From the IMG/VR virus record IMGVR_UViG_3300008516_000204, positions 1-64,000 of that record: a stretch of 64,000 nucleotides of DNA; one strand, written 5' to 3'. The notes below the pieces were generated by a model. The model did no database searches. It was not told the DNA's origin and saw only the letters and a list, made by a program, of their open reading frames with translations. Below are positions 2,147 through 58,666 of the stretch, one piece after another. Each line of letters opens with the position of its first letter. The first letter of the stretch is position 1. The stretch comes from a virus. The position numbers and the translations under genes were made by a program.

Positions 2147-2200
2147 TTTTATTTCACCCCCTGCTCAATTGATTTTTTGTTACTATATTAACAAAATTTT

Positions 2201-2416
2201 TCATAGTTGTTCCTTTTTCACTTCCACCTTTTCTTCGGACTCATCAATAAATTTTACAATTATAAAATCTGGAGCCTTTAGATTATCGCCTTTCTTACTA
2301 TTTTTAAAAGCCACATATATAACTTTATTGAGAGATATTTTTAAGCCCTCTTTTCCATTTTTGAACTTCCGAAGCCATGCCACTCCAACTTTTTCTATCT
2401 TAGCACGCTTATCCAC
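2201..2416 (-). CDS. Small DUF736-like protein
   Basis: KVGVAW..K...G..L.ISL and FKN.KK....APDF motifs. Confidence 0.5.
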   Translation of the reverse strand: MDKRAKIEKVGVAWLRKFKNGKEGLKISLNKVIYVAFKNSKKGDNLKAPDFIIVKFIDESEEKVEVKKEQL

Positions 2417-2437
2417 TATTACCTTCCTTTCTGCATT

Positions 2438-2893: not shown

Positions 2894-3222
2894 CAGCCTA
2901 GCTCTTTCTTTATTTTAAAATTTATTGTATTATAATTGCTCTGAATTCTGCCATCGGGAAAAGTAATCTCTATCTCCCCAAGAAAATCACCCACAGTATC
3001 TAAATCATCTGTCTGCCAAGAATATTCACATACTCCAGCTTCAGCGTCGGTAATATCACAAAGTCGTTTAAATTTATATACCCCACTTCTGAACGCCTTT
3101 TTAAAAATAAATTTGACACTGCATCCTGTTAAAATAATAGCATCACCAGTTTCACCGCAACCATCTTCCCTACATGTAAAACGCAGAATAGGTTTGGTAT
3201 CATTTTGAATGAGTTCTATCAT
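2893..3222 (-). CDS. BppU-like Ig-fold baseplate/fibre-attachment protein
   Basis: IQNDT.P.L.F...L.G.SV.F...G..EY.W...D....G.F..EIEITF.DG pattern. Confidence 0.55.
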   Translation of the reverse strand: MIELIQNDTKPILRFTCREDGCGETGDAIILTGCSVKFIFKKAFRSGVYKFKRLCDITDAEAGVCEYSWQTDDLDTVGDFLGEIEITFPDGRIQSNYNTINFKIKKELG

Positions 3223-3392
3223 TATCTAGTCCCTTTAAATTTAACTTCGATATCGTATTTTTTATGAAACATAGCACTAATTAATCCTTTTACAAATCTA
3301 ACAGTAATGTCTATATATCTTTTTACTACAATAAGAAAAGTATTGTAAACCTGCTTATTATACATAAATGAATTATAAATTTTATTCACCCT

Positions 3393-4481
3393 TTATATAA
3401 TACTTATAATCTGCCCATCTGTAACTGTTACAGTTTTTCCATCTACTGTAGTAAAAGTTCCATTAATTGAATTTTTTGCTAACAATTGTTCTTTATCTGT
3501 TAAAATAGGATGGTCTGGGGTGTTATATGTAGGATTTCCTTCGATTTTACACGAACCATCATACCAACAAGCATCTAATTCACCTGTCAAATAAACAGAA
3601 GTTCTATTGCGTAATTGTAAAACTAAAGTTTCTATATTGCTAAATGCCATTTTTCCCCACTCTTCATGCCCAAGTCCACAAACATAGTCTGCTACTATGT
3701 GTGCTTCTTTTCCATTACAATTAAATGCTGGTGGAGAATTAAAAGATGAATGTCCGACATAAGTTACTTGTTTCAAAGTAACATCTTGATAATCTTCAGT
3801 AAATCTAAAAATTTCATTTGCGCCTTCATCAGACATCCTAAATAATACTATATCTTTAAATATTACATTTTTACCATGCCAATAACCAGAGGAGACAGTT
3901 TTATTTATCTGCCTCATTCCAGAAAGAAATAAATCTCCTTCTATAGTAATATTAGTAATATCTTTTACAGCCGTAGAAGTTATTGTTATATTAGAAGTAA
4001 CTATAATAGTTCCACCATTTATAGTCCTTAAATAATCAATAGCATCGTCAAAGTTATCATAATCTGCTCCAGAAATTCCAACTGTGACAATTGATTTAGT
4101 TAGCCCACCACCATTTATCCATGATAATTCTTTATTCCCATCAGTCTTTAATACCTGCCCAGTTGCCCCATCCTCTGGCAAAACATAAATAGTATCTTCT
4201 GCTAAAACTTCTGGGCTCTTGAACCCAATATGCTTATCGCCATTTTTTATTCTCAATTCTTCTGGAGCATCAAAAGTTTCATTAGGACAAGCAGCAACGA
4301 TGCTATCAAGTATATCCTCATCTTCGGTGGATAAAGTATTAGTGAAGTTTACTTTTAATTCTTGGTCATCTTCCTCCCAATTACACCATTCAATACCCTT
4401 ATCAGTCATTGCTGATGCAGCAACCTCATCATGTATATATTGTAAATGGGGTAATTGAGTTTTAGTGTATTCATATAACAT
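3393..4481 (-). CDS. Tail fibre/spike-like virion protein
   Basis: LP.DG..GQVLKTDG...LSW fibre motif; VG...DY..F.DAI entry to a beta-helix-like region; GTFTT.DGKTVTVTDG.I C-terminus. Confidence 0.6.
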   Translation of the reverse strand: MLYEYTKTQLPHLQYIHDEVAASAMTDKGIEWCNWEEDDQELKVNFTNTLSTEDEDILDSIVAACPNETFDAPEELRIKNGDKHIGFKSPEVLAEDTIYVLPEDGATGQVLKTDGNKELSWINGGGLTKSIVTVGISGADYDNFDDAIDYLRTINGGTIIVTSNITITSTAVKDITNITIEGDLFLSGMRQINKTVSSGYWHGKNVIFKDIVLFRMSDEGANEIFRFTEDYQDVTLKQVTYVGHSSFNSPPAFNCNGKEAHIVADYVCGLGHEEWGKMAFSNIETLVLQLRNRTSVYLTGELDACWYDGSCKIEGNPTYNTPDHPILTDKEQLLAKNSINGTFTTVDGKTVTVTDGQIISII

Positions 4482-4497
4482 CTTTTCTACCTCCTAA

Positions 4498-5607
4498 TTA
4501 TATTTTTCTCATAGATAATCTAACTCTACAAATCATTGCGGTATCTCCATCAGCTTTAAAATCTACATCTATTGTGTGTAAATTAGTATCTGCGAAATTC
4601 AATCTTTTAAATCCAGAAGAATTACTATATTCATCTGCCATATTAGCTTCATGATATACACGATTGATTTGAGTTGTGTCGTCTAATTCAACCTGAACAA
4701 GAGTAGCTGAACCAACTTTACTATTTGCAGTTTCTAAAGACCACTCTAATAAATAATTTCCAATAGAAGGAGGTGTAAATTCCATACTATATTTTTCTTG
4801 CCAAGCAGTATCGGTAGTAGCTGATACTGTTTCATCTTCTGCATAAGTAACATCTGCTATGGGTCCAGTTGGTCCAGTAATACCCTGAATTCCTTGTGGT
4901 CCAGTAGGACCAGTTGTGCCTGTATCACCTTGTAAACCATTCTGCCCAGTAACTCCCTGTGGACCAATAGGCCCTGTAGTTCCTGTTCCTGTAGGACCAG
5001 TGGGACCAGTCTTACCAGTTATACCAGTAACACCATGAGGATTGTCAGTACGAGTATCGTGGTCGCCATCTGTTACTAAATCAAGTTCGGTTTTATTATC
5101 ATGATCGTGTTTTTTAGCTAAAAGGTCGGTATCTATTTCGCCATCTTTAATTACCACGCCTTCAATTGTTATCCCCGCATCAAGTGTGTATTCATTTATT
5201 GTGTCTATAAATCCACAACCTGTTACATCAAGACCACAATCAAATTTAAATTTGTCTTTAGCCTCCTGCCAAATAATTTCTCCATCCCCGTTATTACCAG
5301 AAAATTTAATTTTATAATCTATACCAGTCGCACCATTTCCTATTCTAAGTGCTTCTGCTAGAGATGTATCTATATGCACTCTTCCATCAGCATCCACAGT
5401 AACTTTATCTACCCTTAATGCCTCATCTGTATTTTGAATATGCTTTTTAGCAATAGCATCTTTTATATCATTCTCATCTTCTATGATTACAAAATCTCTT
5501 ATTTCAGATTCAGGATGAGTAGAACAAGTTACATTCTCATCAACAGTCTCCTGCTCTAAATACTCATAGTGAGCACCATCTATACAATAAAATCTAACTT
5601 TATACAT
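4498..5607 (-). CDS. Collagen-like virion fibre protein
   Basis: About 20 GXY triplets; shares HIQNTD, KHxHxNK and DNPH motifs with the neighbouring fibre gene. Confidence 0.75.
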
Positions 5608-5623
5608 AACTTATTCTCCTTTT

Positions 5624-6682
5624 TTAAAATTCTATTAGTAGCCCTGAAACATATACTTCTTCTTCTGGACTCTTTGCCTGAACTTCAAACACAGCTTCCC
5701 CAGAAGGTAAATTTGCTAGTGTCCCTAAATCTATCCCAATAGGTACTAAACTACTTATTCCTGTTACTTCGCAAATAACATTAGCGTTAGTTGAATCGTA
5801 TATGCTAACATCCCCAGGTTTTACTGCGGTTTTAACATGTGCTATCACTTTGATACTAGTAGGACTGCCTAATTTAGTAGTTCCTTTAAAAATAAATCTG
5901 GTAAGGACTGCATAAGTTGCACTTTTGGCGAATAAATAATTATTGGCGTTACCACTCAAAGTAATCTCTATACATTTAGCACCATTAACTAAAGTATTTA
6001 CTTCAGCTTGGGTATATGCCCCTACTTGGGCAGAAGTAACTGTATGAGGATTATCGGTTAAATCTTTATGAGTAACTGCGTCTTTTACATCTGCTACAGC
6101 GACTTCATTGGCCCCACCTTCATCTAATTTTTGGTCTGTACCTTGAGTGTGGGCTTTAGTAACTGCATCATCATAAGCAGTCTTTAAAGCACTTGTAAGA
6201 GCTTCCTCTATTAAATCGAGAGTAGCCTTATTAGCATGTGTATGCTCGTTAATAACGCAAGAATCATAAGCACTTTTTAAAGCGGTTGTAAATGCTTCTT
6301 CTATTGCATCTAGCGTTACTTTGTTAGCATGAGTATGTTCATTCGTAACACAAGAATCGTAGGCAGTCTTTAATGCAGAAGTAAATGCTTCTTCTATCAA
6401 GTCTAAAGTTGCTTTATTTGAATGTTCATGTGCTTTTGTAACAGCATCGTCATATGCTGTTTTTAAAGCAGATGTCAATGCTTCCTCTATAAGGTCTAAA
6501 GTAACTTTATTAACATGACTATGTTTTATATCAACTGCATCTTTAATATCTGCGACTGCTACTTCATTAACTCCACCTTCGTCTAATTTGGTATCTGTAT
6601 TCTGGATATGTGCTTGCTCTACCGCTTCTGCTGTCTCATCATCCTGAATTTTGTCATACTTAGTTGGTTTAAATCTGTCCAT
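5624..6682 (-). CDS. His-repeat fibre protein
   Basis: Four 31-aa repeats flanked by duplicated H.Q.TD.KLDEGG.NEVAVAD.KDAV units. Confidence 0.7.
   Translation of the reverse strand: MDRFKPTKYDKIQDDETAEAVEQAHIQNTDTKLDEGGVNEVAVADIKDAVDIKHSHVNKVTLDLIEEALTSALKTAYDDAVTKAHEHSNKATLDLIEEAFTSALKTAYDSCVTNEHTHANKVTLDAIEEAFTTALKSAYDSCVINEHTHANKATLDLIEEALTSALKTAYDDAVTKAHTQGTDQKLDEGGANEVAVADVKDAVTHKDLTDNPHTVTSAQVGAYTQAEVNTLVNGAKCIEITLSGNANNYLFAKSATYAVLTRFIFKGTTKLGSPTSIKVIAHVKTAVKPGDVSIYDSTNANVICEVTGISSLVPIGIDLGTLANLPSGEAVFEVQAKSPEEEVYVSGLLIEF
6152..6523 (-). repeat. Four tandem 93-nt coding repeats (HxHxNKxTLDxIEEAxTxALKxAYD...)
   Basis: Residues 54-177 of ORF 5624-6682. Confidence 0.9.
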
Positions 6683-6750
6683 TATTATTGCCTCCTAATT
6701 TTTATTGTAATAAGAGATAGAGGCTAAACTGACTTCCCCTTATTTTTTAA

Positions 6751-7206
6751 TTAAACAGTTGTATCACTAACAACAATTTGTGTTACTTTATCGTCTACAT
6801 TATAAGAATAGGTTGATAATTTTGCAGGCTGTCCACCAGCTGCCCCAGTTGCATATTCCTTAATGGTTTCAACCTTGCCAGCCCCATTTCCAGCAGTTAC
6901 ATAAGTATATTCTGCTGTAATATTGGCTTTGTTCAGAGGATTTTCATCAACATCCACAACTCCTGAAATTGTAGAAACTCCTGTAACATGAACTGTTCCA
7001 TCAGCATCCACTTTGATATATTTAGCATTGCCTACAGTTCCATCGGTTGAAGCGATTTTTAAATTGTCTATATTCAAAGATAAAGAATCTACAGATAATT
7101 CAGTATCAACTTTTAAAACACCAAGTCCATCGGCATCTACTGTTGCTGCCAATGGTATAAATTTTACTTGATTCCCATCTTTGACAGAAGCGTATAATCG
7201 AGCCAT
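6751..7206 (-). CDS. Hypothetical virion protein
   Basis: Strong SD (AGGAGG), beta-rich composition, in the structural operon. Confidence 0.6.
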   Translation of the reverse strand: MARLYASVKDGNQVKFIPLAATVDADGLGVLKVDTELSVDSLSLNIDNLKIASTDGTVGNAKYIKVDADGTVHVTGVSTISGVVDVDENPLNKANITAEYTYVTAGNGAGKVETIKEYATGAAGGQPAKLSTYSYNVDDKVTQIVVSDTTV

Positions 7207-7301
7207 ATTTTTCCTCCTTATTATTTCTGATTAAATTTTAATATTTTTACTTTCAGATTCCGCATGGTTTTATTTATAGTGATTTGCGTCTTCACACTTT
7301 G

Positions 7302-7493
7302 TTATCTCCACCAACGAAGTAGACAAAACATTGCCACAGTCAAACCAAAATATAGTGCCTGCATAATTTTGTCAAATTTATGTTGTGAAACATGATTAGT
7401 AAAATGAAGTTTTAAACCCTTTAGTGCCTCATCAAGTTGCCCTACCTTGTTACTCAATTCTACTAATATGTTTATATTATTTTGCTCTGACAT
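7302..7493 (-). CDS. Small coiled-coil protein with C-terminal TM helix (holin-like?)
   Basis: IMQALYFGLTVAMFCLLRWWR hydrophobic tail. Confidence 0.5.
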   Translation of the reverse strand: MSEQNNINILVELSNKVGQLDEALKGLKLHFTNHVSQHKFDKIMQALYFGLTVAMFCLLRWWR

Positions 7494-7502
7494 TTTATTC
7501 CT

Positions 7503-7805
7503 TTACTTCTTAAAAACTTTCGCCAATCCTTTATCTATAAGCTCTTGATTTACATTCCTGCCATTCAAATAGACTATTGCAAGTGAATATTCTTTTGCCA
7601 ACTTAATATCAATCAGAACTTTTTTATCTACTAAAGTATCATTAAGGTATTCAATCGCACCATCAAACTTGCTATTTTTATACTTAAGAGATGAGATATC
7701 TTTCAGTCTAAGGGTTGACCTAACTCTGACTCCAAATCCTAATGAGATTTCAGCATCAAATGTATTAATATTCTTTATATTTTTAATCACAGCTTCATAT
7801 CTCAT
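7503..7805 (-). CDS. Thermonuclease (SNase)-fold protein, catalytic residues degenerate
   Basis: YEA.I....TFD..I.LGFGV.....LRL and NVN.ELI.KGLA scaffold, but DGDT>NINT and no GIDAPE/DKYGR. Confidence 0.7.
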   Translation of the reverse strand: MRYEAVIKNIKNINTFDAEISLGFGVRVRSTLRLKDISSLKYKNSKFDGAIEYLNDTLVDKKVLIDIKLAKEYSLAIVYLNGRNVNQELIDKGLAKVFKK

Positions 7806-7830
7806 TTTCTCTCCAGAATTTTTTTTAGAA

Positions 7831-7869
7831 CCAGTAGGTCTGGGACTACATAAGCCCCAAACCTACCAG
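7831..7869 (-). terminator. About 17-bp stem-loop 3' of the major capsid gene
   Basis: Minus strand CTGGTAGGTTTGGGGCT-TATGT-AGTCCCAGACCTACTGG; mismatches become G-U pairs only on the minus-strand RNA; no U-tract. Confidence 0.6.
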
Positions 7870-7884
7870 ATTATTTAATAGCTA

Positions 7885-8877
7885 TTATACGCTATTTTCA
7901 AGACCGTCGATTCTAACTATAGAACCAACTCCAAGGGTCTGTTTCAAATCTATTCTTTCAGAAATTACCACTCTGAGAGCATCGGCTTCGATAATCTTAT
8001 CGGATTCAAACTTAACTTTCCGTCTGTCACCAATAACAACAGCATCACGTCTCATCAAAACAGCAACACCCTTATCGGCTACCTGGGGAGCTCCACCCTC
8101 CATACAGAGAGCAGTCAACTCTTCAGGAATATAAGGAGATTCCACGAGTTTAATACCCATGTATTGCCCTAATTCACCTTTAAGAATAGTAGCATTCGGA
8201 CCATATTTTTCAACAGTCAAAACAGCAGTTTCTTGGCGTAGTTTAGAAGCAGTGTAAGGACTAACTAAAAGTATTAGTTTATCCACACCACGACCATATT
8301 TACCCATAGCTATTCTAGCAGCCTCGATAGTAGCTAATAGAGAAGTAGCGTAATCCACAGTTTTCCCAGCACCAAGTTTTAGAACACCATCAAATGCTTT
8401 TCTAGCATCCTGAGCGTTCGCCCAACCTAATCCAGTATCACCCTGAATCATAGCTTTTTCTTCCGCAGTTGCCACGCCTTGTGCAAAAGCCTCTTTAATA
8501 AGAGGTAGCATAGCCACTTTAGAATCCTCCTCTACTTCATTGGAAATATCAGTATAAGCCATTAGTTTCTTAGCAGCTAATGTAACTTTCCCTGCAAAAG
8601 CTGAAGTTAAATCAGATTTCGCAGCGGGTGCAGTTGCTTCACCAGAAACATAATAGACTGTAGCATCAGCATCAATTCTAGGAATCTCGAAGCTAGCTGT
8701 AGGCATAGTTATCGTTCTGAAAAGTTCACGACAATAATTCTTCTCCCTGACTAATTCAATAAACTCTTTAGCATATTCTACAGGTAAAAAGTTGCCAATT
8801 TCAGATGATAGCAAGTCTTCAGCATCAGCTTTTTGTAATCCTACTCCAACAGCTTTCTTAATTGCATCGTCTAACAT
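7885..8877 (-). CDS. Major capsid protein, HK97 fold
   Basis: G.FLP.EY...FI..V, IP.......YV.GE, VTL.AKKL.....IS.E..EDS, E.AMI.GD, R..MGKYG motifs; follows the protease; strong SD. Confidence 0.92.
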   Translation of the reverse strand: MLDDAIKKAVGVGLQKADAEDLLSSEIGNFLPVEYAKEFIELVREKNYCRELFRTITMPTASFEIPRIDADATVYYVSGEATAPAAKSDLTSAFAGKVTLAAKKLMAYTDISNEVEEDSKVAMLPLIKEAFAQGVATAEEKAMIQGDTGLGWANAQDARKAFDGVLKLGAGKTVDYATSLLATIEAARIAMGKYGRGVDKLILLVSPYTASKLRQETAVLTVEKYGPNATILKGELGQYMGIKLVESPYIPEELTALCMEGGAPQVADKGVAVLMRRDAVVIGDRRKVKFESDKIIEADALRVVISERIDLKQTLGVGSIVRIDGLENSV

Positions 8878-8939
8878 ATCTTAAAACACCTCCTGTCTTT
8901 ACAGATTCAACCTAGCACAATTTTTCTAGGATATTATTT

Positions 8940-10697
8940 TTATTTTCCAAATACGATTCTGTTCCAACCTCTATCGGTTGTCTTTTTCACATCTCTCTTC
9001 TCCTCATCATTTTTCTTATCAGCATAAGGAGCATCTGCTATAAAACTTTTTCTCTGTGGTTCTTTTTTTACTTTTTCTTTCGTTTTTTCGACTTTCTTTT
9101 CTATCTTCGGCTCTTCTTTCTTTTCCTTGGCTTTAGGTTTCTCAGCTAAAAGTTTCTCACCACAGTCTGGACAAACTTGTTCAATACAAGGAGTACCTCT
9201 TTTGTGCTCTACTTCTTTATCACATTTAAGACAGTAACAAGTACTTCTGCCTCCAACTCCCTGTCTTGGATTACCTTGTCCTTGACCCTGCCCAACTTCG
9301 GGAGCTTTCTCTTCCACTTTAGATTCCTCTACTGCTTTCTCTGGAAGTCTTGAGAGAACCTCATCAATCTTTTTACCTAAATCCTTAAGGCTCGCTAAAA
9401 TTTCTTTTAGAGGAGCTTCAGGAGCTGGGTATTGTTTTCCAGCTTCTTCTTCCTTTTTAGGATATGGGTATTTTTCAGGATAAGGATATTCCTGTCCAAC
9501 CAACTTCGATACCTTTGCTTTTATCTCCTGCAACAACGCTTTTACATCTTCATTGGTCTCTTTTGCGAGAAGCTTATCCAATAAGAAAATAATCTCCTTT
9601 ACCTCTTCACCTAGTTTTGCATAAGGGTATGGATAATAAGGATAGGGATATTGTTTAGCATCTTCAACCTCATCAATTAGAAGTTCCCAGGTTGCTTCAT
9701 CATCGTCTTTTACCTCTTCTTCCTTTTTTTCTTCTACTTTAGGTTCTTCCTTCTTTTCTTCAACTGGTTCAGATTTTTCCTCTTTTGCTTCTGAAACTGT
9801 CTCACCAGTTTTATCTGGTAAAAGATTAATTTGAATAGTAGAAGTGTCATCTGAGGTTGTAGGAGCAGCTTCAGCCTTTGTATCCTCAACTTTTTCTTCG
9901 GACTTAATTTTTTCAGCAGCTTCTTCATCCTCTTTTTCGTACTTCTCCAGATCCTTCTTCTGAGCATCCTCCTTCTCTTCTACTCTACTATCCTCTTTCT
10001 TTTCTACCTTTGTGGGCTCTTCTTTTTTCTCCTCCACAACTTCTTCAGCCTTCTTTTCCTCGGCTTTGGGTTCTGTAGTCTCAACAACATCAGAAGTTCC
10101 ATCAGAAACAGTAATGTCGGTAGTATCAGAATCAGTAGTTTCGATTTTCTTTTCTTCTGCCATTTCTTTCCCCTCCTCTCTCTTTTTGATTTCGTCTGTA
10201 ATCGCTGTGTTAAAAGATTTATTTACTAATGCAAATTTCGCTTCAGGATTAGCTGGTAATCCAACAACACTTACCTCAAATAATTCTATGCCTGTAACCT
10301 CATTATAGCGTTTACCGTCTTTTCCCACTTTTTCCTCCGATGCTATCACTCTACCACCGATGCTGAAACTATCAAGGATGTCCTCTTCTATCAGTGTCCA
10401 CAGTTGGTCGGCTGTCTGGGAAATCTCAACAACAACTTTCAAACCCTTATCATCGATTCCTGTTTCAATGACTTTTCCGACGGGAAATTTTTGATGCTCA
10501 TGTTCGTAGAAAACAGTATGGTTTTCAAGCAAGTGGTCAGCAGCCTGTCGTAACGCTTCTATAGTGATAACTTCATTCTGCCTATCGAGGGCAGCAGTAG
10601 AAGCATACCCTCTGATAAGACGTTTGCCATCCTTTTTAGATTTCTTCAGAATATCTGTGTAAACCTTAAACTGTAAATTATCAAATAAATTGTTCAT
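8940..10697 (-). CDS. HK97-family prohead protease fused to an acidic scaffold-like region
   Basis: IRGYAST...DRQNE, H..PVG, FSIGG, ELFEVSVVGLPANPEA; long E/K-rich C-terminus. Confidence 0.9.
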   Translation of the reverse strand: MNNLFDNLQFKVYTDILKKSKKDGKRLIRGYASTAALDRQNEVITIEALRQAADHLLENHTVFYEHEHQKFPVGKVIETGIDDKGLKVVVEISQTADQLWTLIEEDILDSFSIGGRVIASEEKVGKDGKRYNEVTGIELFEVSVVGLPANPEAKFALVNKSFNTAITDEIKKREEGKEMAEEKKIETTDSDTTDITVSDGTSDVVETTEPKAEEKKAEEVVEEKKEEPTKVEKKEDSRVEEKEDAQKKDLEKYEKEDEEAAEKIKSEEKVEDTKAEAAPTTSDDTSTIQINLLPDKTGETVSEAKEEKSEPVEEKKEEPKVEEKKEEEVKDDDEATWELLIDEVEDAKQYPYPYYPYPYAKLGEEVKEIIFLLDKLLAKETNEDVKALLQEIKAKVSKLVGQEYPYPEKYPYPKKEEEAGKQYPAPEAPLKEILASLKDLGKKIDEVLSRLPEKAVEESKVEEKAPEVGQGQGQGNPRQGVGGRSTCYCLKCDKEVEHKRGTPCIEQVCPDCGEKLLAEKPKAKEKKEEPKIEKKVEKTKEKVKKEPQRKSFIADAPYADKKNDEEKRDVKKTTDRGWNRIVFGK

Positions 10698-12532
10698 TTC
10701 GTTTCCTCCTCTTTCGGTAACTCACTCTTTTCCATAGTCCAAATATCTGTTTTCGGATCTTCTCTCACAAATATATATAATCCTTTAAGATTTTTTCCTT
10801 TAAATCTGACTTTCTTAAATAAATCCGAATCCTCCAAAACTTCCGCTTTACCATCATCTGTCAAAACCGAATAAGCGGGCGTATTTTTTGTAGGATTAGC
10901 ATCAGCATTAACAATGGTCCACAATCTTTCCAGATGGTCCATCCAAACTTTATCATCTTTTTTCAATCGTGGAAATAGAACTGGTTTGGAAGTATATCTC
11001 TCACCCTTTTTGTCTTTAACAGTATAAATTTGCCCTTGAGATGTTTCATCCACTTTTTCCACTACGGTTACTTCAATAAGTTCATCTATTACTCCAGCAG
11101 GAGCCAGTGAACCATCCCATTCAAGTGCTTCCCTCACTTTACAAGGCTTATATATACAGGTTGTCTTATCAATTACTGATGGGTTTTCTGTGCATTGAAA
11201 ATGTGGAAAAGGCATTTCTCCATTATCTATTCTTACATCCCAGTATTGTTCCGATGGTCCACGCCTCACGACTATCTGTCCACGAAACCAATGCCAATGC
11301 AATGCAAATGGAAATGTTCCAACTTTCTTCTCTACAGATTTCTTTTTCGGTTGCTTTTTCAAATATTCAAAATAGGCATCCCTAATTTTCCTTCTTTCTC
11401 CAAGGCTTTCTTTAGTCCAGTATTTGAACTCAATAGGAACATTCTTTTTCAAATCTAATGGCAGTGCTGAAAAGCCTTTCGGTGGAACCCATTTTTTATT
11501 CACTGCTCGTCGTGAAATAACATAGGGGGTTTGCACAATCGGTTGAATACAAACCCAGAATACACCCAGTTTTGGTTTTCCTTCTGGAATTTTTGATGGG
11601 GGCAAAATAATTTTTTGAAGTTCGGATTTTCTAAACACTACGCAACCATTTTTGGTCAATGGAACCCAATTAATTTCAGTTGGATTGAGCTCCTCATTTA
11701 CATAAGCCAATGAAGCATTAAAACTGTTTAAAACATATTCTGGTAAAATTCCTCTCTTTACTAAACTTTCAAAAGCCTTCTGCTCTAATCTGCGAAATAC
11801 TAATCTGCCTTTTAGTTTTCCATCCATCCAGTATTCGTGATAATAACTTTTCTGGCAAAGATACTGTGCCTTGCCCTTATCTACGATTAAAAATACCGCT
11901 GGATATTCCTTAGTGGCTCCTACCGTTCCTTTCGGTGCGACTCCTTGAACCTCCATCCACTCAATTGGTATTCTTGCTTTTTCGTGTGCCCTTAATTCAG
12001 TCGGCTTTATCTGTCCAGCAGCAGTTCTCCGCATTGCAAATTTTCCAGTTTTCCAATCTATTTTAAATGCTTTACCTTCTTTTTCGATTCGCCTTGCCTC
12101 TTTCATAGTCACTACTGGCTCTTTAATAACGCCCTTTATCAAATCATCTATCGTCCAACCAATTGCATATTCGCCACGCTTCGCTATTATACGCAAATCG
12201 GTATGACAGCTCTTGCCTCGCCAATGATGATGGCATATATATTTATATGGACCTTTATCCTCGGCTGGAACTTCCTTGTATAGTAAAACTTGCTTCTCAA
12301 GTCTTTTTTTGGCTTCTGCTAATTCCTCTGGTGTAGTTTCCAAAAATTTTCTTTCCCTTTCTGAAAAATATTTCTTCATTATCTCATTATAGTACTTTCT
12401 AGAAAGTTTTTTCATTTTCTTCGGTTTTGCTGTAAAGACAGAAGGATTTTTTCTTTTTCTTTTAAGTAATTCTTTTAGTATCTTCCGCCCTAATACTAAT
12501 AATTCTTTTTTTGAAACTTCACTTAATTTCAT
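10694..12532 (-). CDS. Protein with two LigD-type DNA 3'-phosphoesterase (PE)-like domains
   Basis: ICHHHWRGKSCHTDLRI...GTVGA....FLIVDKG...GKLKGRLVFRR and FALHWH...QYWDVRI...DDG...FKGKNLKGLYIFVR resemble the LigD PE H..HxDxR and G.KL.G.y.l.R motifs. Confidence 0.65.
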   Translation of the reverse strand: MKLSEVSKKELLVLGRKILKELLKRKRKNPSVFTAKPKKMKKLSRKYYNEIMKKYFSERERKFLETTPEELAEAKKRLEKQVLLYKEVPAEDKGPYKYICHHHWRGKSCHTDLRIIAKRGEYAIGWTIDDLIKGVIKEPVVTMKEARRIEKEGKAFKIDWKTGKFAMRRTAAGQIKPTELRAHEKARIPIEWMEVQGVAPKGTVGATKEYPAVFLIVDKGKAQYLCQKSYYHEYWMDGKLKGRLVFRRLEQKAFESLVKRGILPEYVLNSFNASLAYVNEELNPTEINWVPLTKNGCVVFRKSELQKIILPPSKIPEGKPKLGVFWVCIQPIVQTPYVISRRAVNKKWVPPKGFSALPLDLKKNVPIEFKYWTKESLGERRKIRDAYFEYLKKQPKKKSVEKKVGTFPFALHWHWFRGQIVVRRGPSEQYWDVRIDNGEMPFPHFQCTENPSVIDKTTCIYKPCKVREALEWDGSLAPAGVIDELIEVTVVEKVDETSQGQIYTVKDKKGERYTSKPVLFPRLKKDDKVWMDHLERLWTIVNADANPTKNTPAYSVLTDDGKAEVLEDSDLFKKVRFKGKNLKGLYIFVREDPKTDIWTMEKSELPKEEETK

Positions 12533-12533
12533 A

Positions 12534-14540
12534 TTAGTCTTTCCACTGATTATTCCTCATTTTCCAAGAAGCATAGGCACAACCCAATCGCCAATCATCA
12601 CGAAGTACTGCATCCCCCAATTTAGTCGGGTCATAGGTTCTAATATCTATAATTTTTTGTAAATAAACTTTGTAAATAGTTTCGCCTTCCATTGGAATTA
12701 TTTTTTCCTGAAATACTAATCCTGCTTTCGCTTTCCTCACAGCACTATCTATCGTATCAACTTCTTTATCGGTTTTTCCGAGTTCTCTCGGAGACCAAGC
12801 TGTTACCTTTATCTCATCAGTTTTTTCATCTCGTTCCAAATTAAGTGTCTCATATTCCAGCAAAAATACATCGCCCTTTTTCATCGGTCGTGCGGAGGAA
12901 AATGTTTTCCCGACTTTGAGATATTTTTTCCCACCGATTTCTACTATAAGTTTTTCTGTAACTTTCTTACCCTGCGGGTCAAGTCCAAAAAGATAATTCC
13001 ATATATTTTTCACTTTTGTTTCTATGGCTTCTATGACAATTACATTCGCAACTCCAGAATTGTGAAATTTCCACTGATTACTTCTTTTCCCATCTAATCT
13101 ATATTTAGCAGTTGAGAGTTTAATTACATTTCCTTCTGAGCCATCAAGTTTTCTAAGAAATTGTGTGTGCTTTCTGATGTCTTCTACTGTCTTACTTAAA
13201 ACTGCTGGTACTCTATTCAATTTATATTTTAAATTTGGTTTTCTCCAAGTTGCTTGGGGAAATTTCAAAGTTTTTAATGCCTCCAACCTTTTTTCAAATG
13301 ACTCATTATGAATATCCTTACCATTCAGATAAGTTATGTCATAAACATTTGCAACTAAACCAGTTTCGTCTGGTTCTCCTTTTCTGTGAACTCGCCCTAT
13401 AACAGCTTCTCTCGGTTGATGTTTTAATCCTCCATCTACAGTTTTCCACAACTCAACCTCTGCTACAAACGAAAAATTATCGGAATCGAGTTTCTTTAGC
13501 TCCTCAACCAACTCTGGAAATCTGTCAGTATTATCCTCACCATCTTCACTAATAATTTTTGCTTTACCTTTATCATAGTGAAACTCCAAATTCAATCCAT
13601 CATATTTTTTTGTGGAATACCAAGGCCCCTTACTTTCATTTGCTACAATTGATACAAATAAATCTATAGTTTGTCTTTCTCTTGGAAAATATCCTCTTAT
13701 CGGTTTAAGTGGTAAATAAAATCTGAATAACTTGACTTTATCTTCTTCTGCCGAGGCTTTTGCCTGAGCTTTTATTTCTGGGGATGCTGCTCTTTGTTTA
13801 GTAGTTAAATTTTTCAGGCTCATCTCTACTATATTAAATTCTGGATTTAAAATAAATTCCAATTTACCAAGACAAATATCTGTATCGGATGGCTTAAAAT
13901 TAGCATCAAACCGATACCTGATTCGATGCCAGTATTCTTTAGGAAGTGCTCTCCATATTCTAAACTTGATAGCGACTGAAATAGATGGCGGAAGTTTTGG
14001 ATAGCTAAAAACGAAATCAATATATCTCTTAGTTTCACCTTTTGCTGGTAGTTCGCCAACTAACCACAGAAACTTTTCCTCAAACACAACAGAAGATAAA
14101 CCTTTCAGAATATCATCCAAACAAATATCCTCGCCAATTTCCACGCCAGATGAGCCAACTGGAATATAAGATTTTTCCTCTGATTTTTCTTCCATAACAG
14201 TCATCTGTAATTTTCCCAGTGGAACATTTGAGGTAAAAGGTCCTCGATAGGCATCCATCATAAAATGGCTACGACTTTTTAAATTGTCATCGAGTCCCTG
14301 CATTAATTTTTCTTCCAACTCTCGAAGCATCCTATCTGGTAGATACTCAGCTCGGTATAAAATATCAAAATCACCCTTTGTTTTCTTCCTATTAACTATC
14401 CCTCCTGTCAAAAATAGAAAGGGATTTTTTATTACAAAAGAATCCATAACTGAAATTACTTCCGATAATTTAATAGGTTTCATATCAGGAGTTACCTTTC
14501 TGGGATTAACTATTAAATCTTTTTTGGTACTTTCTTTCAT
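12534..14540 (-). CDS. ATP-dependent DNA ligase with N-terminal nucleotidyltransferase-like domains
   Basis: Motif I KKYDG, III AEVE, IIIa VYDITY, IV EGNVIK, V WK; N-terminal LTGG-x9-DFD Pol-beta-type NTase signature plus a degenerate second copy. Confidence 0.85.
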   Translation of the reverse strand: MKESTKKDLIVNPRKVTPDMKPIKLSEVISVMDSFVIKNPFLFLTGGIVNRKKTKGDFDILYRAEYLPDRMLRELEEKLMQGLDDNLKSRSHFMMDAYRGPFTSNVPLGKLQMTVMEEKSEEKSYIPVGSSGVEIGEDICLDDILKGLSSVVFEEKFLWLVGELPAKGETKRYIDFVFSYPKLPPSISVAIKFRIWRALPKEYWHRIRYRFDANFKPSDTDICLGKLEFILNPEFNIVEMSLKNLTTKQRAASPEIKAQAKASAEEDKVKLFRFYLPLKPIRGYFPRERQTIDLFVSIVANESKGPWYSTKKYDGLNLEFHYDKGKAKIISEDGEDNTDRFPELVEELKKLDSDNFSFVAEVELWKTVDGGLKHQPREAVIGRVHRKGEPDETGLVANVYDITYLNGKDIHNESFEKRLEALKTLKFPQATWRKPNLKYKLNRVPAVLSKTVEDIRKHTQFLRKLDGSEGNVIKLSTAKYRLDGKRSNQWKFHNSGVANVIVIEAIETKVKNIWNYLFGLDPQGKKVTEKLIVEIGGKKYLKVGKTFSSARPMKKGDVFLLEYETLNLERDEKTDEIKVTAWSPRELGKTDKEVDTIDSAVRKAKAGLVFQEKIIPMEGETIYKVYLQKIIDIRTYDPTKLGDAVLRDDWRLGCAYASWKMRNNQWKD

Positions 14541-14560
14541 ATTTTTAAAAATGTTAGGAG

Positions 14561-14641
14561 GACGAATAAGAGGATATCCTCTATATTAGCCCTGGGTTAG
14601 GTCATCTTTTTTGGCTACTTTGGACCCATCCCCTATTCGTC
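14561..14641 (-). ncRNA. Candidate structured RNA element between portal and ligase
   Basis: Closing stem GACGAATAGGGG/CTCTTATTCGTC (G-U pairs on the minus strand), inner TGGGTC/GACCTA and TAGCC/GGCTA pairings. Confidence 0.4.
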
Positions 14642-16015
14642 TCATTCCCTTTCCTTATCTTCTTTCAAAAATTTGATAATTCTTTTCGATCTCTTATCTC
14701 TTTTGGTCTCTTTTTTTCTCTGTTTCTTTTTTGGCTTTTCCTGTGGTTCTTCAATTTCTTCTTGCTCAATTGAACGCTTTTTCTTGGATGGTAATCCCCT
14801 GTCTCTGCGAACTTCCTCGATATCACGAATTCCAGCCTCCAAATCAATCTGGTCTATCTTTGCTGCATCCAAAGCATCTCGTAAATCCAATTCAGCAAAT
14901 TTAAAAGTATATTTATCTGTAAACTCCGAAATTAATGACTTATTTAATTTGGCTGCTATCATTTTTTGGAGTGGAATAATCTTCTCTGTTTTAAAAGCGT
15001 TTGCCTGTTCCTTACTATTGGCTCTATTGCTCGATTCAACAATTCCAACCATAATCGGAGGAACACCAAGAACAGCCAAAATCTCATCTCGGTTAAACTT
15101 CCGCTGATTCAAAAACTCCATATCCTTTGGAGGAGTTCCGATTGGAGTTATCTTTGCCCCGCCTTCTGTTATAATTGTCTTATGGGATTTGCCACTACCC
15201 TTGTAAACAGTTCGCCAATATTCCCTCATTCTCTTCAGCTGTGGTAAGGTACAATTACCTAAATCAACATGAAGTCTTGGTGTTGCATCATTTTTGAAAA
15301 AGTCTTTATTATAAGCTTGAGCATAAAGGTCAGTTTCAATAGGTATGATTAAACTTTCTAAGGGAGATAAACCATAGACCTCTGAACCAGGATTAATTAA
15401 CCTAAAGTGAATAATCTGATTAAGGTCGAATTCGGCAACTACCTGCCAGTCAAAAACTTGAACATAACCCAATATTTTCCCATGCTCATCAACTTTTATT
15501 CTCATTGAGGGACAATATACATTATAAAGGGCTACTGGTAAATCAGTAACCCTATCTCTCACAACCTCAATATAGGCATCGCCATAAATATGCAAATCTG
15601 TAATAATTTCAGCAACTATATCTGAAAATGTATCATCTGCATTGGGTTCTTCTAATAAGTCCTTTAAAGCTCCTATCTGTGAGTTTGAAGATAACTTCTT
15701 GCTCAATACAGCTTCTTTTGAATCAATCGCACCCTCTATAGAAACCAAACGCCACCCGTTTGAGGTGGCGGTTCTAACTATAACATCGACGGCTGCCCGA
15801 ACCCAAGATTCTTTCTTGTATATCTGCTCCAGCATTGAGTAACTAACACGGGTGTCCCTACCTTTGGTTGAATCGCTTTCGCTATAATCGTGAATATATG
15901 ATGCTGGGTCTACTTTGGGCTCTTGGACCACTTTTTTCTGTAGATCTTGTATCTCTGCAATAAGCTTATCTTTTTCTCGCTTATGCCTATTAAAGAAAGG
16001 AAAGGCCAAATTCAC
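14642..16015 (-). CDS. Portal protein, HK97 family
   Basis: WV.AAV..I, PN......I.DL.IYGDAY, IIHFR......YGLSPL, DMEFL..RKF.R.EI....GVPP. Confidence 0.93.
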   Translation of the reverse strand: MNLAFPFFNRHKREKDKLIAEIQDLQKKVVQEPKVDPASYIHDYSESDSTKGRDTRVSYSMLEQIYKKESWVRAAVDVIVRTATSNGWRLVSIEGAIDSKEAVLSKKLSSNSQIGALKDLLEEPNADDTFSDIVAEIITDLHIYGDAYIEVVRDRVTDLPVALYNVYCPSMRIKVDEHGKILGYVQVFDWQVVAEFDLNQIIHFRLINPGSEVYGLSPLESLIIPIETDLYAQAYNKDFFKNDATPRLHVDLGNCTLPQLKRMREYWRTVYKGSGKSHKTIITEGGAKITPIGTPPKDMEFLNQRKFNRDEILAVLGVPPIMVGIVESSNRANSKEQANAFKTEKIIPLQKMIAAKLNKSLISEFTDKYTFKFAELDLRDALDAAKIDQIDLEAGIRDIEEVRRDRGLPSKKKRSIEQEEIEEPQEKPKKKQRKKETKRDKRSKRIIKFLKEDKERE

Positions 16016-49618: not shown

Positions 49619-50328
49619 TTAGACTTAAGACAGATAAAGATATTCAGTTAATTGAGAAGGCAATCGAAATAGGAAAAAATGCTTTATCGGTTGCCAAGCA
49701 AATTACTGTTGTCGGGATTACTACACAGGAGATAGATAGGCAAGTGGAAGCATACATTCTTAAAAAGGGTGCCGCTCCCTCGTTCAAAGGCTACAAGGGC
49801 TTTCCTACTGCTTGTTGTATAAGTTTGAATAATGAGATAGTACATGGATATCCCAGAGATAACAAGATAAAAAGCGGTGATATAGTCAAGATAGATATTG
49901 GTATATGCTTTAAGAGCAGATATTCCGACCAAGCAATTACATTTGTAGTTGGAGAAGGCAAGTCTAAAAAGCATCTTGATTTAGTATATACAACCAAACT
50001 GGCATTAGAGAGAGCAAAAAAGGTTGCTATTCCAAATAATACTTTGAATCAGATTTCGTGGGAAATACAGCGAACAGCACAGGAAAATGGATTGGGTATA
50101 GTTACTGCTTATACAGGACATGGCGTGGGTTTTGAAATTCACGAAGAACCAATTATCAGAAATATTGTTACTCCAAATGAAAATATGCGATTAGTAAAAG
50201 GAATGGTGTTGGCTATTGAGCCGATGTTTGCATTAGGAAAGGGCGATGTTGAAGATAAAGGATATGCTGTTGTAACTAAAGATAATAGTATGTCCTCCCA
50301 TTTTGAGGAAACAATTATCGTAAGATGA
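49615..50328 (+). CDS. map: Methionine aminopeptidase type I
   Basis: CIS.N..IVHG, D.G...D, GHGVG..IHE, AIEPM, HFE.T. Confidence 0.94.
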   Translation: MIRLKTDKDIQLIEKAIEIGKNALSVAKQITVVGITTQEIDRQVEAYILKKGAAPSFKGYKGFPTACCISLNNEIVHGYPRDNKIKSGDIVKIDIGICFKSRYSDQAITFVVGEGKSKKHLDLVYTTKLALERAKKVAIPNNTLNQISWEIQRTAQENGLGIVTAYTGHGVGFEIHEEPIIRNIVTPNENMRLVKGMVLAIEPMFALGKGDVEDKGYAVVTKDNSMSSHFEETIIVR

Positions 50329-50930
50329 AAAAGAGTAAGACAAAAAAACTACTGTGTGAATATTGGAATCAGGGCAAAATCTGCGGTCTTGATAGAACTA
50401 AGCATTGCCCCTATACCAAAGCCACCAGTTACAAATGCGAGAGCTGGCTCAAGCGGATAAAACGACGCAAGAAAGGGATACATATTCCTGTGATAATTAC
50501 CGATACAAGAGAAAATTGTGGCTACTTATTCAAGGGCAAAGAGGCAGAGGCAAAAATAGTTATGAAGAAACTGGCAACAGGAGATTACAGTTTGGAAGGC
50601 TTCGAGAACGATATAGTCATAGAAAGAAAGCGGATAAACGAACTCTTTGGGAATTTTGCTGGGGACAGGGAACGATTTATGCGGGAAGTTGAACGAATGG
50701 AAAAAATCCCATATAAGTTTCTCTTGATAGAGGGTTCATTCAAAGATTTAGCCCAAATGAAAAAAGTCCCAGGCAAAGTCAGTATTAAATTAGTGGTGGC
50801 TACCCTCATCAGTTTGATGATAAAGCACAATGTAAAAGTTGTATTCGCTGGAAATCCGAAACTGGCGGAACAGTTGGCATATAGGATTCTTATCAAGTTT
50901 TTTAACTATAAGATAAAAGGGGATGTATAA
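50325..50930 (+). CDS. ERCC4 (XPF)-type nuclease
   Basis: DTRE, L.TGDY, IERK, RF..E..R, LLIEG. Confidence 0.88.
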   Translation: MKKSKTKKLLCEYWNQGKICGLDRTKHCPYTKATSYKCESWLKRIKRRKKGIHIPVIITDTRENCGYLFKGKEAEAKIVMKKLATGDYSLEGFENDIVIERKRINELFGNFAGDRERFMREVERMEKIPYKFLLIEGSFKDLAQMKKVPGKVSIKLVVATLISLMIKHNVKVVFAGNPKLAEQLAYRILIKFFNYKIKGDV

Positions 50931-51980: not shown

Positions 51981-52190
51981 ATGAAACATCCTAAATTAAG
52001 AGCAAGGAAAAGACCAAAAAGAACGAATATCCGTAAAACTAAGCAAGATATTACAGAAATTATTGAAAATAGTCAAAGAGATATTCGTTGGTATTTGGCT
52101 AAAGATATTATGGATTATTTGAAGAAAAGAGGTATGTTAGATGTCAGGAAGAAAGACAAGAAGAAAAATAAAAAGAAGAAAAAGAAATAA
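51981..52190 (+). CDS. Basic hypothetical protein
   Basis: K/R-rich. Confidence 0.5.
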   Translation: MKHPKLRARKRPKRTNIRKTKQDITEIIENSQRDIRWYLAKDIMDYLKKRGMLDVRKKDKKKNKKKKKK

Positions 52191-52422: not shown

Positions 52423-52623
52423 ATGAAAGACCCAAAAAGAATAAATAGAATATCAAAATTGATTGGGAAGATTTGGAGAAAAAATCCTAGTTTGAGATTA
52501 TGCCAATTAATAGGAAATTGCTTTAATTTTAGCACAAACGATACTTCAATAATAAACGATTTATATTATATAGAAGATGACGAATTGGAACGAAGATTAA
52601 GAGAGATATATAAGGAGGAATAA
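52423..52623 (+). CDS. Conserved phage protein (M.DP.RI...W...P.LR..QL family)
   Basis: Motif plus YYIEDD. Confidence 0.75.
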   Translation: MKDPKRINRISKLIGKIWRKNPSLRLCQLIGNCFNFSTNDTSIINDLYYIEDDELERRLREIYKEE

Positions 52624-52625
52624 AG

Positions 52626-52919
52626 TTGAGTCTGCATAAGACATTGAAGCCGAGAAGAAAAAAGGTTCGTTCCGTTCTAAAGAGACATGAAAGATTGGCA
52701 AAGGCTATTAGGGAACGGAATTGGCTCAAAAAGATGGGTGCATATGGTTTACCCAAGTTTAACCCACTAAAATTTAAAGTGAAAAAGAAAGAGGAAGAAG
52801 AGCAAACAACTACATTAGGTAAAGTTGATATTGTAGCACAGCATAAATTAGAGAAAGAAAAATTAAGAGAAGAAAAAAAACAGAGAAAGAAAGGGAAAGA
52901 TACAACTGGAATAAGATGA
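52626..52919 (+). CDS. Small basic protein, PVC-superphylum signature protein family (TIGR04137-like)
   Basis: MS.H..L....RSVLKR.ER....W......GLPK then a K-rich tail; SD AAGGAGG with TTG start. Confidence 0.8.
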   Translation: MSLHKTLKPRRKKVRSVLKRHERLAKAIRERNWLKKMGAYGLPKFNPLKFKVKKKEEEEQTTTLGKVDIVAQHKLEKEKLREEKKQRKKGKDTTGIR

Positions 52920-56125: not shown

Positions 56126-58666
56126 ATGTCTATATACTGCACAAAATGTCCTTTACACTTAACAAGCTTTACAAACGACAAGAAACATAAGGTAATCTGT
56201 CTTTCTGGTTGTGGCTCTAAATCTGCCAAGATTATGCTCATCGGCGAAGCACCAGGGAATGATGAGCTATTTAAGAAAGAGCCATTTGTGGGCAAGGCAG
56301 GCAAAGAACTGGACAAATGTTTGAAAGAGGCAGGGATAAATCGAGCCGAGATATTTTTGAGCAATAGTTGTCGTTGCCGACCACCAGATAATCGTGACCC
56401 AAATGCCAAAGAACTAAAAGCCTGCCGAGAATTTTTGGTGAATGAGATAAACGCTATCAAACCCAATGTCATCGGGCTTCTCGGTAATATAGCGATGAAG
56501 CAGGTTCTGGGCAAAACTGGTTCACTAAAGTATCAGGGGCAACCATTTTGGAGCGATGAGTTTCAGGTTACTTGTATACCACTTATTCATCCCAGTTATA
56601 TTATTAGAAATCAGGATAATATGGAGATTAGGGAGAAATTTATCAATGCCCTCAAATTTGTTAAGGAAGCCAGCAAAACTAAAAATCCAATTAAGCGGAA
56701 AGTTTCACCAGTTAAATATGTAGTTTGCGATAATATGAAGAAAGTTAAGGCACTATTTTCAAGATTAAGGCAGATTAAAGAGAATTCTATTGACACAGAA
56801 TCGACTTCCTTGCGACCTTATAATGGCAAATTGCTTTGTGCGTCTTTTAGCTGGAAGGAAAATACTGGAATAGTCCTGCCTATTTTGGGCAGAAACCTCA
56901 AGCGGATTTGGAACAATCAGCAATATAATTGGATCTTGGGCGAGCTTCGCAAATATTTTAGTAGAAAAAATGTCAAGAAAATATATCAAAATGGTAAGCA
57001 TGATATTCAATGGTTCAAATATCACCTCGGCATAGAAAGCACGATAGAGTTTGATACTCAGTTGGCTCATTATTCTTTGAATATGGAATCGCCTCGACAC
57101 AGTCACGGACTAAAGGAAATGGCTTGGACTTTTACAGATATGGGGAACTATGCTGAAAAAGTTGACCCAAAACAATTTGGCGACCCAAAATATATTAAAG
57201 AACATTACGATGATATAATGCAATATGCCTGTGCGGATGCCGATTGCACTTTCAGGATTTACCGCAAATTATCGCCACAAATTACAAAAGAAAAAATGGA
57301 CTATGTTCTTTATAACATAATGCTTCCAGAATCCATAGTCTTGGCAGATATTGAACTAAATGGTGTCCAAATTGACAGGAAAAAATTGGAACGACTAAAA
57401 TTTCAGTATGCTCGCAACTTGAATGCAACCGAAACCAAACTTTATTCTCTGCCAGCGATTAAAACAGTTGGGAACAAGCAATATAAGAAACTTGTTGATA
57501 AGCAGAAAGCCAAGTATAAAAATTCCAAAATAATTAAGAAGCGACACACATTAAAAGAATATCTGGACAAGGTTGAGCGACCCAAGTTCAATTTCAAATC
57601 GCACCAGCAATTAGCCATATTGTTTTATGATATTTTGAAAATGCCCAAACCAGAGAAAACGAAGAAGGGAACAGCATTATCCACAGATAAAAAGACATTG
57701 GAAAAATTGGAAGGGAAACATCCCGTTATAAAACTGATTCTCAAATATAAGAAGCTGACGAAGATGTATAATACTTATATCTGCCCGACACTTGAATCTT
57801 TGGATGAGAACGACAGGATACACACGGAATATAATCAGCACATCACTCGGACTGGTAGAATTTCGTCAAGCAGACCGAATCTCCAGAATGTTCCGAAGGA
57901 GTATGGCAAGGATTTTAGGGACTGTTTTATAGCAAAAAAGGGACATAGACTATTGGAAGCAGATTCGAAACAAATCGAGTTTAGAGTATTGGCACATTTA
58001 TCCCAAGACCAGAGAATGATTGCTGATATAAAAAGTGGAAAAGATATTCATACCATTACAGCATCAAGATTGTATAGGACAAAAGAAGAAGATGTTACCA
58101 AGGAACAGCGTGATAAAAGCAAGCCATTCGTTTTCGGCGTACCTTATGGTCGTGGTGCGAAAGCCATCGCTGAACAATATAAGCTGACGCTGAAAGAGGC
58201 GGAGGAACAGTTGAGATACTTCAATCAGATTTATCCGAGGGCTTCCAGATGGAACAAGGCAGCAGTGAGTGGTGCTAAAAGACACGAATATGTTAAGAGT
58301 TGGTTCGGGAGAAAAAGACCACTATTCCATATTAATGATAAGGATAAAATGTTGTCCGAGAAAGACGAGAGAAAAGTCGTGGCATCGGCTGTCCAATCAA
58401 CCGCTTCAGACATTGTTGCCTTGCAAATGGTTGAGGTATATAAGAGATTAAGGGCGAATACCAAATCCAGAATTGTGCTAACCATTCACGATAGCATTGT
58501 AAGCGAAGTTCCCGACAATGAGATTGAAAAGGTTACAGGAATAGTAAAAGAGGAGATGACCAAAGCTCCTAAAGGATTCAGAGTTCCTCTGGATACCGAT
58601 GTCAAGGTCGGGGAACAATGGGGTTCTATGCACGATTCAGATAAGGTTGAAAGCGAGGAAGAATAA
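56126..58666 (+). CDS. polA: Family A DNA polymerase with N-terminal family-4 uracil-DNA glycosylase (SPO1-like)
   Basis: C..C.L, GEAPG..E, PFVG.AG, CRPP.NR, HPSY; exo DTE/N.K.D/YA..D; TGR.SS..PNLQN, D..QIE.R, K...FG..YG, HD. Confidence 0.95.
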   Translation: MSIYCTKCPLHLTSFTNDKKHKVICLSGCGSKSAKIMLIGEAPGNDELFKKEPFVGKAGKELDKCLKEAGINRAEIFLSNSCRCRPPDNRDPNAKELKACREFLVNEINAIKPNVIGLLGNIAMKQVLGKTGSLKYQGQPFWSDEFQVTCIPLIHPSYIIRNQDNMEIREKFINALKFVKEASKTKNPIKRKVSPVKYVVCDNMKKVKALFSRLRQIKENSIDTESTSLRPYNGKLLCASFSWKENTGIVLPILGRNLKRIWNNQQYNWILGELRKYFSRKNVKKIYQNGKHDIQWFKYHLGIESTIEFDTQLAHYSLNMESPRHSHGLKEMAWTFTDMGNYAEKVDPKQFGDPKYIKEHYDDIMQYACADADCTFRIYRKLSPQITKEKMDYVLYNIMLPESIVLADIELNGVQIDRKKLERLKFQYARNLNATETKLYSLPAIKTVGNKQYKKLVDKQKAKYKNSKIIKKRHTLKEYLDKVERPKFNFKSHQQLAILFYDILKMPKPEKTKKGTALSTDKKTLEKLEGKHPVIKLILKYKKLTKMYNTYICPTLESLDENDRIHTEYNQHITRTGRISSSRPNLQNVPKEYGKDFRDCFIAKKGHRLLEADSKQIEFRVLAHLSQDQRMIADIKSGKDIHTITASRLYRTKEEDVTKEQRDKSKPFVFGVPYGRGAKAIAEQYKLTLKEAEEQLRYFNQIYPRASRWNKAAVSGAKRHEYVKSWFGRKRPLFHINDKDKMLSEKDERKVVASAVQSTASDIVALQMVEVYKRLRANTKSRIVLTIHDSIVSEVPDNEIEKVTGIVKEEMTKAPKGFRVPLDTDVKVGEQWGSMHDSDKVESEEE

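Follow-up and report, generated by a model that had tools for sequence, protein, structure and literature searches.

A phage-adapted, tail-swapped version of the PVC signature small basic protein, conserved across a wide range of AT-rich environmental phages

Background

The locus described here raises the question of whether a virus can carry the small basic protein considered as a signature of PVC (Planctomycetes-Verrucomicrobia-Chlamydiae) bacteria and, if so, from which host the gene was taken and what the virus does with it. The cellular protein, known as CT421.2 and represented by the TIGR04137 model, was described as a PVC-restricted protein of unknown function, about 53 residues long in Chlamydiaceae and longer than 80 in Planctomycetes (Gupta et al. 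2012, PMC3444138). In C. trachomatis, CT421.2 ranks with the most strongly expressed genes (PMC5541142). A preliminary description, made from the DNA letters, had recognised the pattern of this protein in one ORF of a phage and had proposed a PVC host, with Omnitrophota as the candidate phylum.

The phage genome and the setting of the gene

The window, i.e. the whole stretch of 64,000 nucleotides that was analysed, corresponds to positions 1 to 64,000 of IMG/VR record IMGVR_UViG_3300008516_000204, a complete virus genome of 106,111 bp with direct terminal repeats and a G + C content of 35%. The genome encodes a portal, an S78 prohead protease, an HK97-type capsid, a primase-helicase, a UDG-PolA polymerase, two DNA methylases and RecA, together with Def, Map, an M17 aminopeptidase, ClpP and a trypsin-like peptidase; it also carries two c-di-GMP-I riboswitches. 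The sequencing runs matching the phage were four marine-sediment DNA runs from one study, the probable source, and no RNA run was found. Coordinates of the features discussed below are given in Table 1.

The product of the small basic protein gene has a pI of 10.6 and a net charge of +21, and contains the motifs MSLHKTL…RSVLKRHERL…W…GLPK…LKFKVKK as they had been quoted. Its TTG start is confirmed by the relatives, which carry ATG at the position aligned to TTG 52626. The stop codon of the upstream ORF (52423-52623) occupies 52621-52623, 2 nt before this TTG, and the TGA stop of the gene overlaps the ATG of the next ORF at 52916. Promoter-like and terminator-like sites around the gene were none beyond chance, and the gene is therefore placed inside a polycistronic block. 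It sits in the early/replication block of the genome, in a tightly coupled operon.

In one public collection the ORF is recorded only from the internal Met37, and automatic gene callers thus tend to truncate the gene. A 62-aa protein (P0027) is a similar truncated gene call. Another entry (P0028, 220 aa, from a contig of 811 bp) resembles the phage tail only, at its own C-terminus, and is probably a mis-call.

Table 1. Features of the window at and around the small basic protein gene
Feature	Coordinates	Strand	Description
ERCC4-domain nuclease	50325-50930	+	Between Map and the small-ORF block; 87-89% identical in L003 and L004
69-aa ORF with poly-Lys tail	51981-52190	+	Neighbour conserved in both phage clades; membership tentative
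Shine-Dalgarno AAGGAGG	52612-52618	+	7 nt 5' of the TTG; within the end of the upstream ORF
Phage small basic protein CDS	52626-52919	+	97 aa, TTG start, TGA stop (ORF translation)
N-domain, residues 1-58	52626-52799	+	Homologous to TIGR04137 / CT421.2 as judged by profile; predicted short helix 20-30, rest extended
Phage-specific tail, residues 59-97	52800-52916	+	TTLGKVD…; predicted helix 69-94
C-terminal basic motif …KKGKDTTGIR	52887-52916	+	Consensus K-K-x-S/K-[RK]-[DE]-x-T-G-[IVR]-[RK], common to both phage clades
DNA polymerase A	56126-58666	+	Fused N-terminal uracil-DNA-glycosylase-superfamily domain, plus 3'-5' exonuclease domain

Relationship to the PVC signature protein

The TIGR04137 model aligned residues 1-46 of the phage protein with model positions 1-48 of 50 (E 5.6e-8), i.e. 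it was covered as a full model from the first residue of the protein. The HMM search suggested in the preliminary description thus returned a significant match over nearly the whole model, at a score (32.5 bits) that stays below the curated 50-bit cutoff. Four phage relatives reached 37.5, 39.1, 49.7 and 53.3 bits, the last of which (locus L004) lies above the cutoff.

The search was also performed in the other direction, using a phage profile (A1) built from the ~97-aa relatives of the phage protein. Over 185,579 species genomes, this profile found cellular proteins with 40-47% identity across residues 1-54, and the cellular proteins so recovered pass the cutoff of TIGR04137 with 56-69 bits. 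Against 1.84 billion representatives it matched 409 clusters, nearly all of them via their own N-terminal ~60 residues, and the named proteins among these clusters are "small basic protein (TIGR04137)". P0031 is a named Omnitrophota small basic protein, and P0033 and P0036 were annotated as TIGR04137 by JGI.

Residues conserved in the family (S2, H4, L7, V17, R20, E22, R23, W33, L42, P43 and K44) are kept in the phage protein; the near-invariant S6 column has T instead, and the other invariant or near-invariant columns of alignments A1, A4 and A5 are all present. The 10-residue block RSVLKRHERL is identical between the phage protein and Omnitrophota proteins. In the labelled CT421.2 alignment (reviewer alignment, supplement of PMC2474590), the pattern MS.H/D…, (R/K)(N/S)VLKR.ER…, W…, GLPK… matches the phage motifs. 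A fortuitous match, in which a lysine-rich ORF resembles a short basic HMM by composition or by chance and without common ancestry, would fit the sub-cutoff score and the TIGR04137 matches in 9 of 14 control genomes at E <= 10, but it is contradicted by the absence of matches in all 14 at E <= 0.001, by the shared block and by the score of L004, and it is effectively refuted by the reciprocal recovery of cutoff-passing cellular proteins, which leaves it a negligible probability.

Other databases were also searched. The phage protein has no match in Pfam, and TIGR04137 is its sole match in NCBIfam; PHROGs gave no match. Homology to a recognised ribosomal protein family was not found in the Pfam, NCBIfam and PDB sequence searches, and PDB sequence searches with alignments A1 and A4 returned no homologous chain, ribosomal or other. 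The PDB matches to Poxin (E 0.045) and NOTUM (E 0.69) were considered as noise. A protein atlas search with the whole protein or its head gave no usable match.

Homology was accepted despite the sub-cutoff score because of the reciprocal recovery, the specificity of the model, the score of L004, the conserved residues, the dN/dS of the head (see below) and the published alignment. On sequence grounds, the gene encodes a diverged form of the PVC signature protein that is adapted to phages, and the proposal of a phage-borne homolog is upheld.

A conserved head and a replaced tail

The N-terminal ~50 residues of the phage proteins share MS.H.SLK, RSVLKR.ER, W and GLPK with CT421.2/TIGR04137, and both phage and cellular proteins are small and strongly basic. 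As in the Omnitrophota copies, a K-x-K-x-K-K-E-K stretch follows GLPK in the phage proteins. The two differ beyond this region, where the Ala/Pro/Gly-rich tail of the cellular proteins is replaced in the phage by a conserved charged helix ending in T-G-x-R/K. The phage tail (TTLGKVDLLEQHKLAKE…) has 10% Ala/Pro/Gly and 49% charged residues, compared with 62-75% Ala/Pro/Gly in the tails of Omnitrophota and of high-GC cellular copies.

The C-terminal motif was found in 29 of 50 phage-type proteins and in 1 of 253 cellular-type proteins. Endings are …KDTTGIR in the window protein, …SREITGVR in L005 and …TSKDVTGIR in L023 and L024. The ratio dN/dS is 0.04-0.06 for the head (N-domain) and 0.11-0.32 for the tail; purifying selection maintains the gene in a wide range of AT-rich phages from the environment. 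AlphaFold2, run with a 58-sequence alignment, gave no globular fold (pLDDT 70.8, pTM 0.32) and modelled the N-terminus as an extended basic chain, with one helix over KRHERLAKAIRE (residues 20-30) and a second, long one in the tail (residues 69-94).

Genomic context also separates the phage and cellular genes. The phage gene lies on a complete virus genome and not on a PVC chromosome, so that it is no single-copy chromosomal gene, and the phage is without the neighbourhood of SPOR protein, small basic protein and tRNA-binding protein that marks the cellular locus. In Omnitrophota (the GTDB phylum of MAG G005), a copy scoring above the cutoff was found in 144 of the 151 genomes sampled, and in all but one of these it is the only copy. 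A free-standing tRNA-binding-domain protein (PF01588) is encoded downstream at all four Omnitrophota loci, directly or after one gene, and a SPOR-domain protein precedes the small basic protein gene (L009, L011). The gene order at L006, L007, L009 and L011 is HD-GYP/GAF, SPOR, small basic protein, PF01588, 3-dehydroquinate synthase.

Distribution among phages

About 50 phage-type copies were found, and they form two clades that correspond to phages with PolA-type and PolB-type replication regions. This conservation across a broad group of phages had been missed in the preliminary description. The first clade holds 25 further homologs of ~97 aa, conserved over their full length. Close relatives of the phage are the IMG/VR loci L002-L004 (PolA 84-93% and portal 92% identical), in which the small basic protein gene is found at the equivalent position, ahead of the methylase and PolA. 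In the record of L004 (G157), PolA is split in two matching parts within one 1274-aa frame (C1:30665-34471), which is a probable intein. L005 (JBHLKP010000003.1, G001:C3), of 80.9 kb, encodes a small basic protein with 55% identity and a portal 33% identical to that of this phage. It is filed under a "Candidatus Hodarchaeota archaeon" MAG (Asgard), and is most likely a more distant phage contig that was mis-binned in the Hodarchaeota MAG.

The proteins of the second clade, which lack Ala-rich tails, are encoded on contigs L012-L014 of IMG/VR and on about 20 loci from metagenomes, with a G + C content of 24-39% (mostly 27-33%). These loci share with the phage Def (42% identity), the trypsin-like peptidase (37%), ClpP (31-34%), the M17 aminopeptidase (62%) and RecA (35%), as well as methylases, and also the small ORFs that flank the small basic protein gene; in place of PolA they carry a family-B polymerase and SbcCD-like genes. 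One of the polymerases (L013:24-4154, 1376 aa) contains a LAGLIDADG domain. The 69-aa poly-Lys ORF of Table 1 has 65% identity in L003 and 49-50% in the clade-2 loci L026 and L030, and its product may be a partner conserved alongside the small basic protein.

Trees were built on about 62 columns; their deep support is weak and they contain no labelled Chlamydiota, Verrucomicrobiota or Planctomycetota sequences. Within this frame, each phage clade is monophyletic, with supports of 96 and 85 in FastTree (313 rows) and of 94 and 86 in IQ-TREE (101 rows). Forcing the two phage clades into one was not rejected and gave a marginally better tree (ΔlnL +1.5, p-AU 0.54). The C-terminal motif, considered as a derived character common to both clades, supports one capture event and a later dispersal among the phages; from these sequences, an ancestor of the phages most likely captured the gene once from a PVC-group host.

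A search of 50,697 deposited phage records gave no match to the small basic protein, and no report of TIGR04137 or of the PVC signature protein in phages was found in the literature searched, which, with the PHROG result, agrees with the earlier statement that none was known. What is new here is that a known cellular family has a viral form with a swapped tail, present across a broad phage group.

Host of the phage

The phage profile gave six cellular genome matches, each of which either bears the label Omnitrophica or lies in a small "uncultured Planctomycetia" MAG; among the latter, L008 (genome G114) belongs to the same GTDB phylum as the Omnitrophota MAG G005. The block RSVLKRHERL is common to these matches. 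The organism-named proteins near the phage profile or in the best 120 family matches are all Omnitrophota, so that the nearest labelled cellular copies come from the phylum first proposed. The phage head is 39-47% identical to labelled Omnitrophota and 36-37% identical to the high-GC cellular copies. In the trees the phage clades adjoin the clade that holds all 12 labelled Omnitrophota; the phylogeny with host copies called for earlier thus points to this phylum, at a weak support of 73-80. Proteins of Chlamydiae, Verrucomicrobia and Lentisphaerae have 51-53 aa in the labelled alignment (PMC2474590), whereas phage and Omnitrophota proteins continue past GLPK. The two c-di-GMP-I riboswitches of the phage fit Omnitrophota, since the same riboswitch is found above the gathering score in 89 of 121 Omnitrophota genomes (G005-G124), often in several copies. 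Up to 12 copies occur in Omnitrophota genomes of ~2 Mb.

Two compositional pointers to Omnitrophota given in the preliminary description had to be abandoned. Its AT-richness sets the phage apart, the matching Omnitrophota loci having a G + C content of 43-57%, so that the phage is 10-20 points lower; its K-rich extension, unlike the Omnitrophota tails, is charged and phage-specific. The other genes examined were as follows. No close portal homolog exists in 251 Omnitrophota genomes, 5 of which match at only 24-29% identity. RecA of Omnitrophota is uniformly 38-43% identical to that of the phage and Map 38-47% identical, in both cases no closer than ordinary cross-phylum similarity, and Def gave no match to Omnitrophota at E <= 1e-35.

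These data can also be read as an old capture from a PVC cell by phages that now infect non-PVC hosts, in which the protein would serve as a general basic nucleic-acid binder. Such a history would account for an identity of only 39-51% to any cellular copy, for the lack of an Omnitrophota signal from RecA, Map, Def and portal, for the low G + C content of the phages (27-35%) relative to the matching MAG loci, and for the carrier contig binned with an Asgard archaeon. The bin in which a phage contig was filed says nothing about its host, however, and the strong purifying selection on the head, with family-conserved residues kept, is expected if a PVC-specific partner is still met; the abundance in Omnitrophota of the riboswitch class used by this phage also speaks against a non-PVC host, which we consider as rather improbable. 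A PVC-group bacterium is quite probably the host. Omnitrophota specifically is plausible and unproven, with chances that we would put at about even; motifs, named matches and a weakly supported tree suggest this affinity.

Possible function

The phage protein may be a captured family member, adapted by the swap of its tail, that acts as a competitor of the host protein, or a replacement for it, at its nucleic-acid target. This role is proposed because of the strictly conserved head, the replaced tail and the setting of the gene in a coupled operon of the early/replication block, and we give it a somewhat better than even chance. The phage would have kept the conserved basic head of the host protein and swapped its Ala/Pro/Lys-rich tail for a charged helix ending in T-G-x-R/K. 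The head would occupy the same nucleic-acid site as the abundant, near-universal protein of the host, and the new tail would alter the outcome at that site by bringing in a phage factor or by putting the host function out of action. Made during host takeover, the phage protein would then be a competitor or replacement. Nucleic-acid binding itself is predicted for the family in the literature; the pI, the net charge and the modelled lack of a globular fold bear on it indirectly.

As to the target, the ribosome or RNA is the tentative first choice, slightly favoured over nucleoid DNA; nucleoid DNA and any other target are each less probable. The preference comes from the tRNA-binding neighbour in cells, from the NCBIfam short name of the TIGR04137 model, which ends in "rRNA", and from the Def, Map, M17 aminopeptidase and ClpP of the phage. 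Against this explanation, the setting among the ERCC4 nuclease, methylases and PolA (in clade 2, PolB and SbcCD) fits DNA binding at least as well as a ribosomal role. Carried further, the PVC signature protein would be an unrecognised lineage-specific translation component, either ribosome-bound or associated with rRNA or tRNA, and the phages would encode a tail-swapped replacement that reprograms PVC/Omnitrophota ribosomes together with the phage Def, Map, aminopeptidase and ClpP. We hold this extended form to be possible and on the unlikely side; if it is true, the C-terminal T-G-x-R/K peptide would be an effector or docking element. Phage-encoded ribosomal proteins such as bS21 were reportedly described by Mizuno and colleagues in 2019, and phage bS21 is thought to replace the host copy and to bias the machinery towards the phage. 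Like phage bS21, the present protein is a small, basic, host-derived housekeeping protein of large environmental phages; unlike bS21, the PVC protein is no recognised ribosomal protein, and its association with the ribosome, for the host or the phage version, is a proposal.

A nucleoid function would make the host protein histone-like, and the phage version a DNA-binding takeover factor that remodels or shuts down the host chromosome or coats replicating phage DNA. The location of the gene in the replication/DNA-modification block of both phage clades and the extremely basic character of the protein agree with it. So does the Ala/Pro/Lys-rich composition of the cellular tails, which resembles that of the DNA-binding tails of histone H1 and of chlamydial Hc1-type proteins. 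The cellular gene, however, is operonic with a tRNA-binding-domain protein and not with DNA-metabolism genes, the model name ends as stated above, and it is precisely the would-be DNA-condensing part, the Ala/Pro/Lys tail, that the phage drops; a nucleoid role is possible and on the unlikely side. The HU-like TF1 of SPO1 and phage H-NS-family proteins are used in takeover or replication, and the protein described here would likewise be a phage copy of an abundant host protein predicted to bind nucleic acids, although it has no sequence or fold relationship with HU or H-NS.

Small basic DNA-neutralising virion proteins exist in other viruses, and the small size, high positive charge and lack of fold of the phage protein would suit a virion-packaged DNA-condensing or internal protein that neutralises capsid DNA or is injected with it; this is very unlikely for a gene encoded on the strand opposite to the head genes (286-16015, minus strand), ~36 kb away from them, and found among early/replication genes in every phage examined.

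Implications

The protein has been used for more than a decade as the single molecular marker exclusive to PVC bacteria, and its PVC-only status needs a footnote, since viruses carry it too. The classification of metagenomic bins by this marker is affected, as illustrated by the carrier contig that sits in an Asgard archaeon MAG. The phage version could also serve as a sequence marker for phages of PVC/Omnitrophota hosts, almost none of which have been cultivated. Phages seldom hold a housekeeping gene of the host under strong selection unless it acts at a control point. If the proposed competitor or replacement role is right, the head-kept, tail-swapped design would assign binding of the shared target to one half of the protein and the specific function to the other, and the phage version may offer a route into the role of a near-universal PVC protein.
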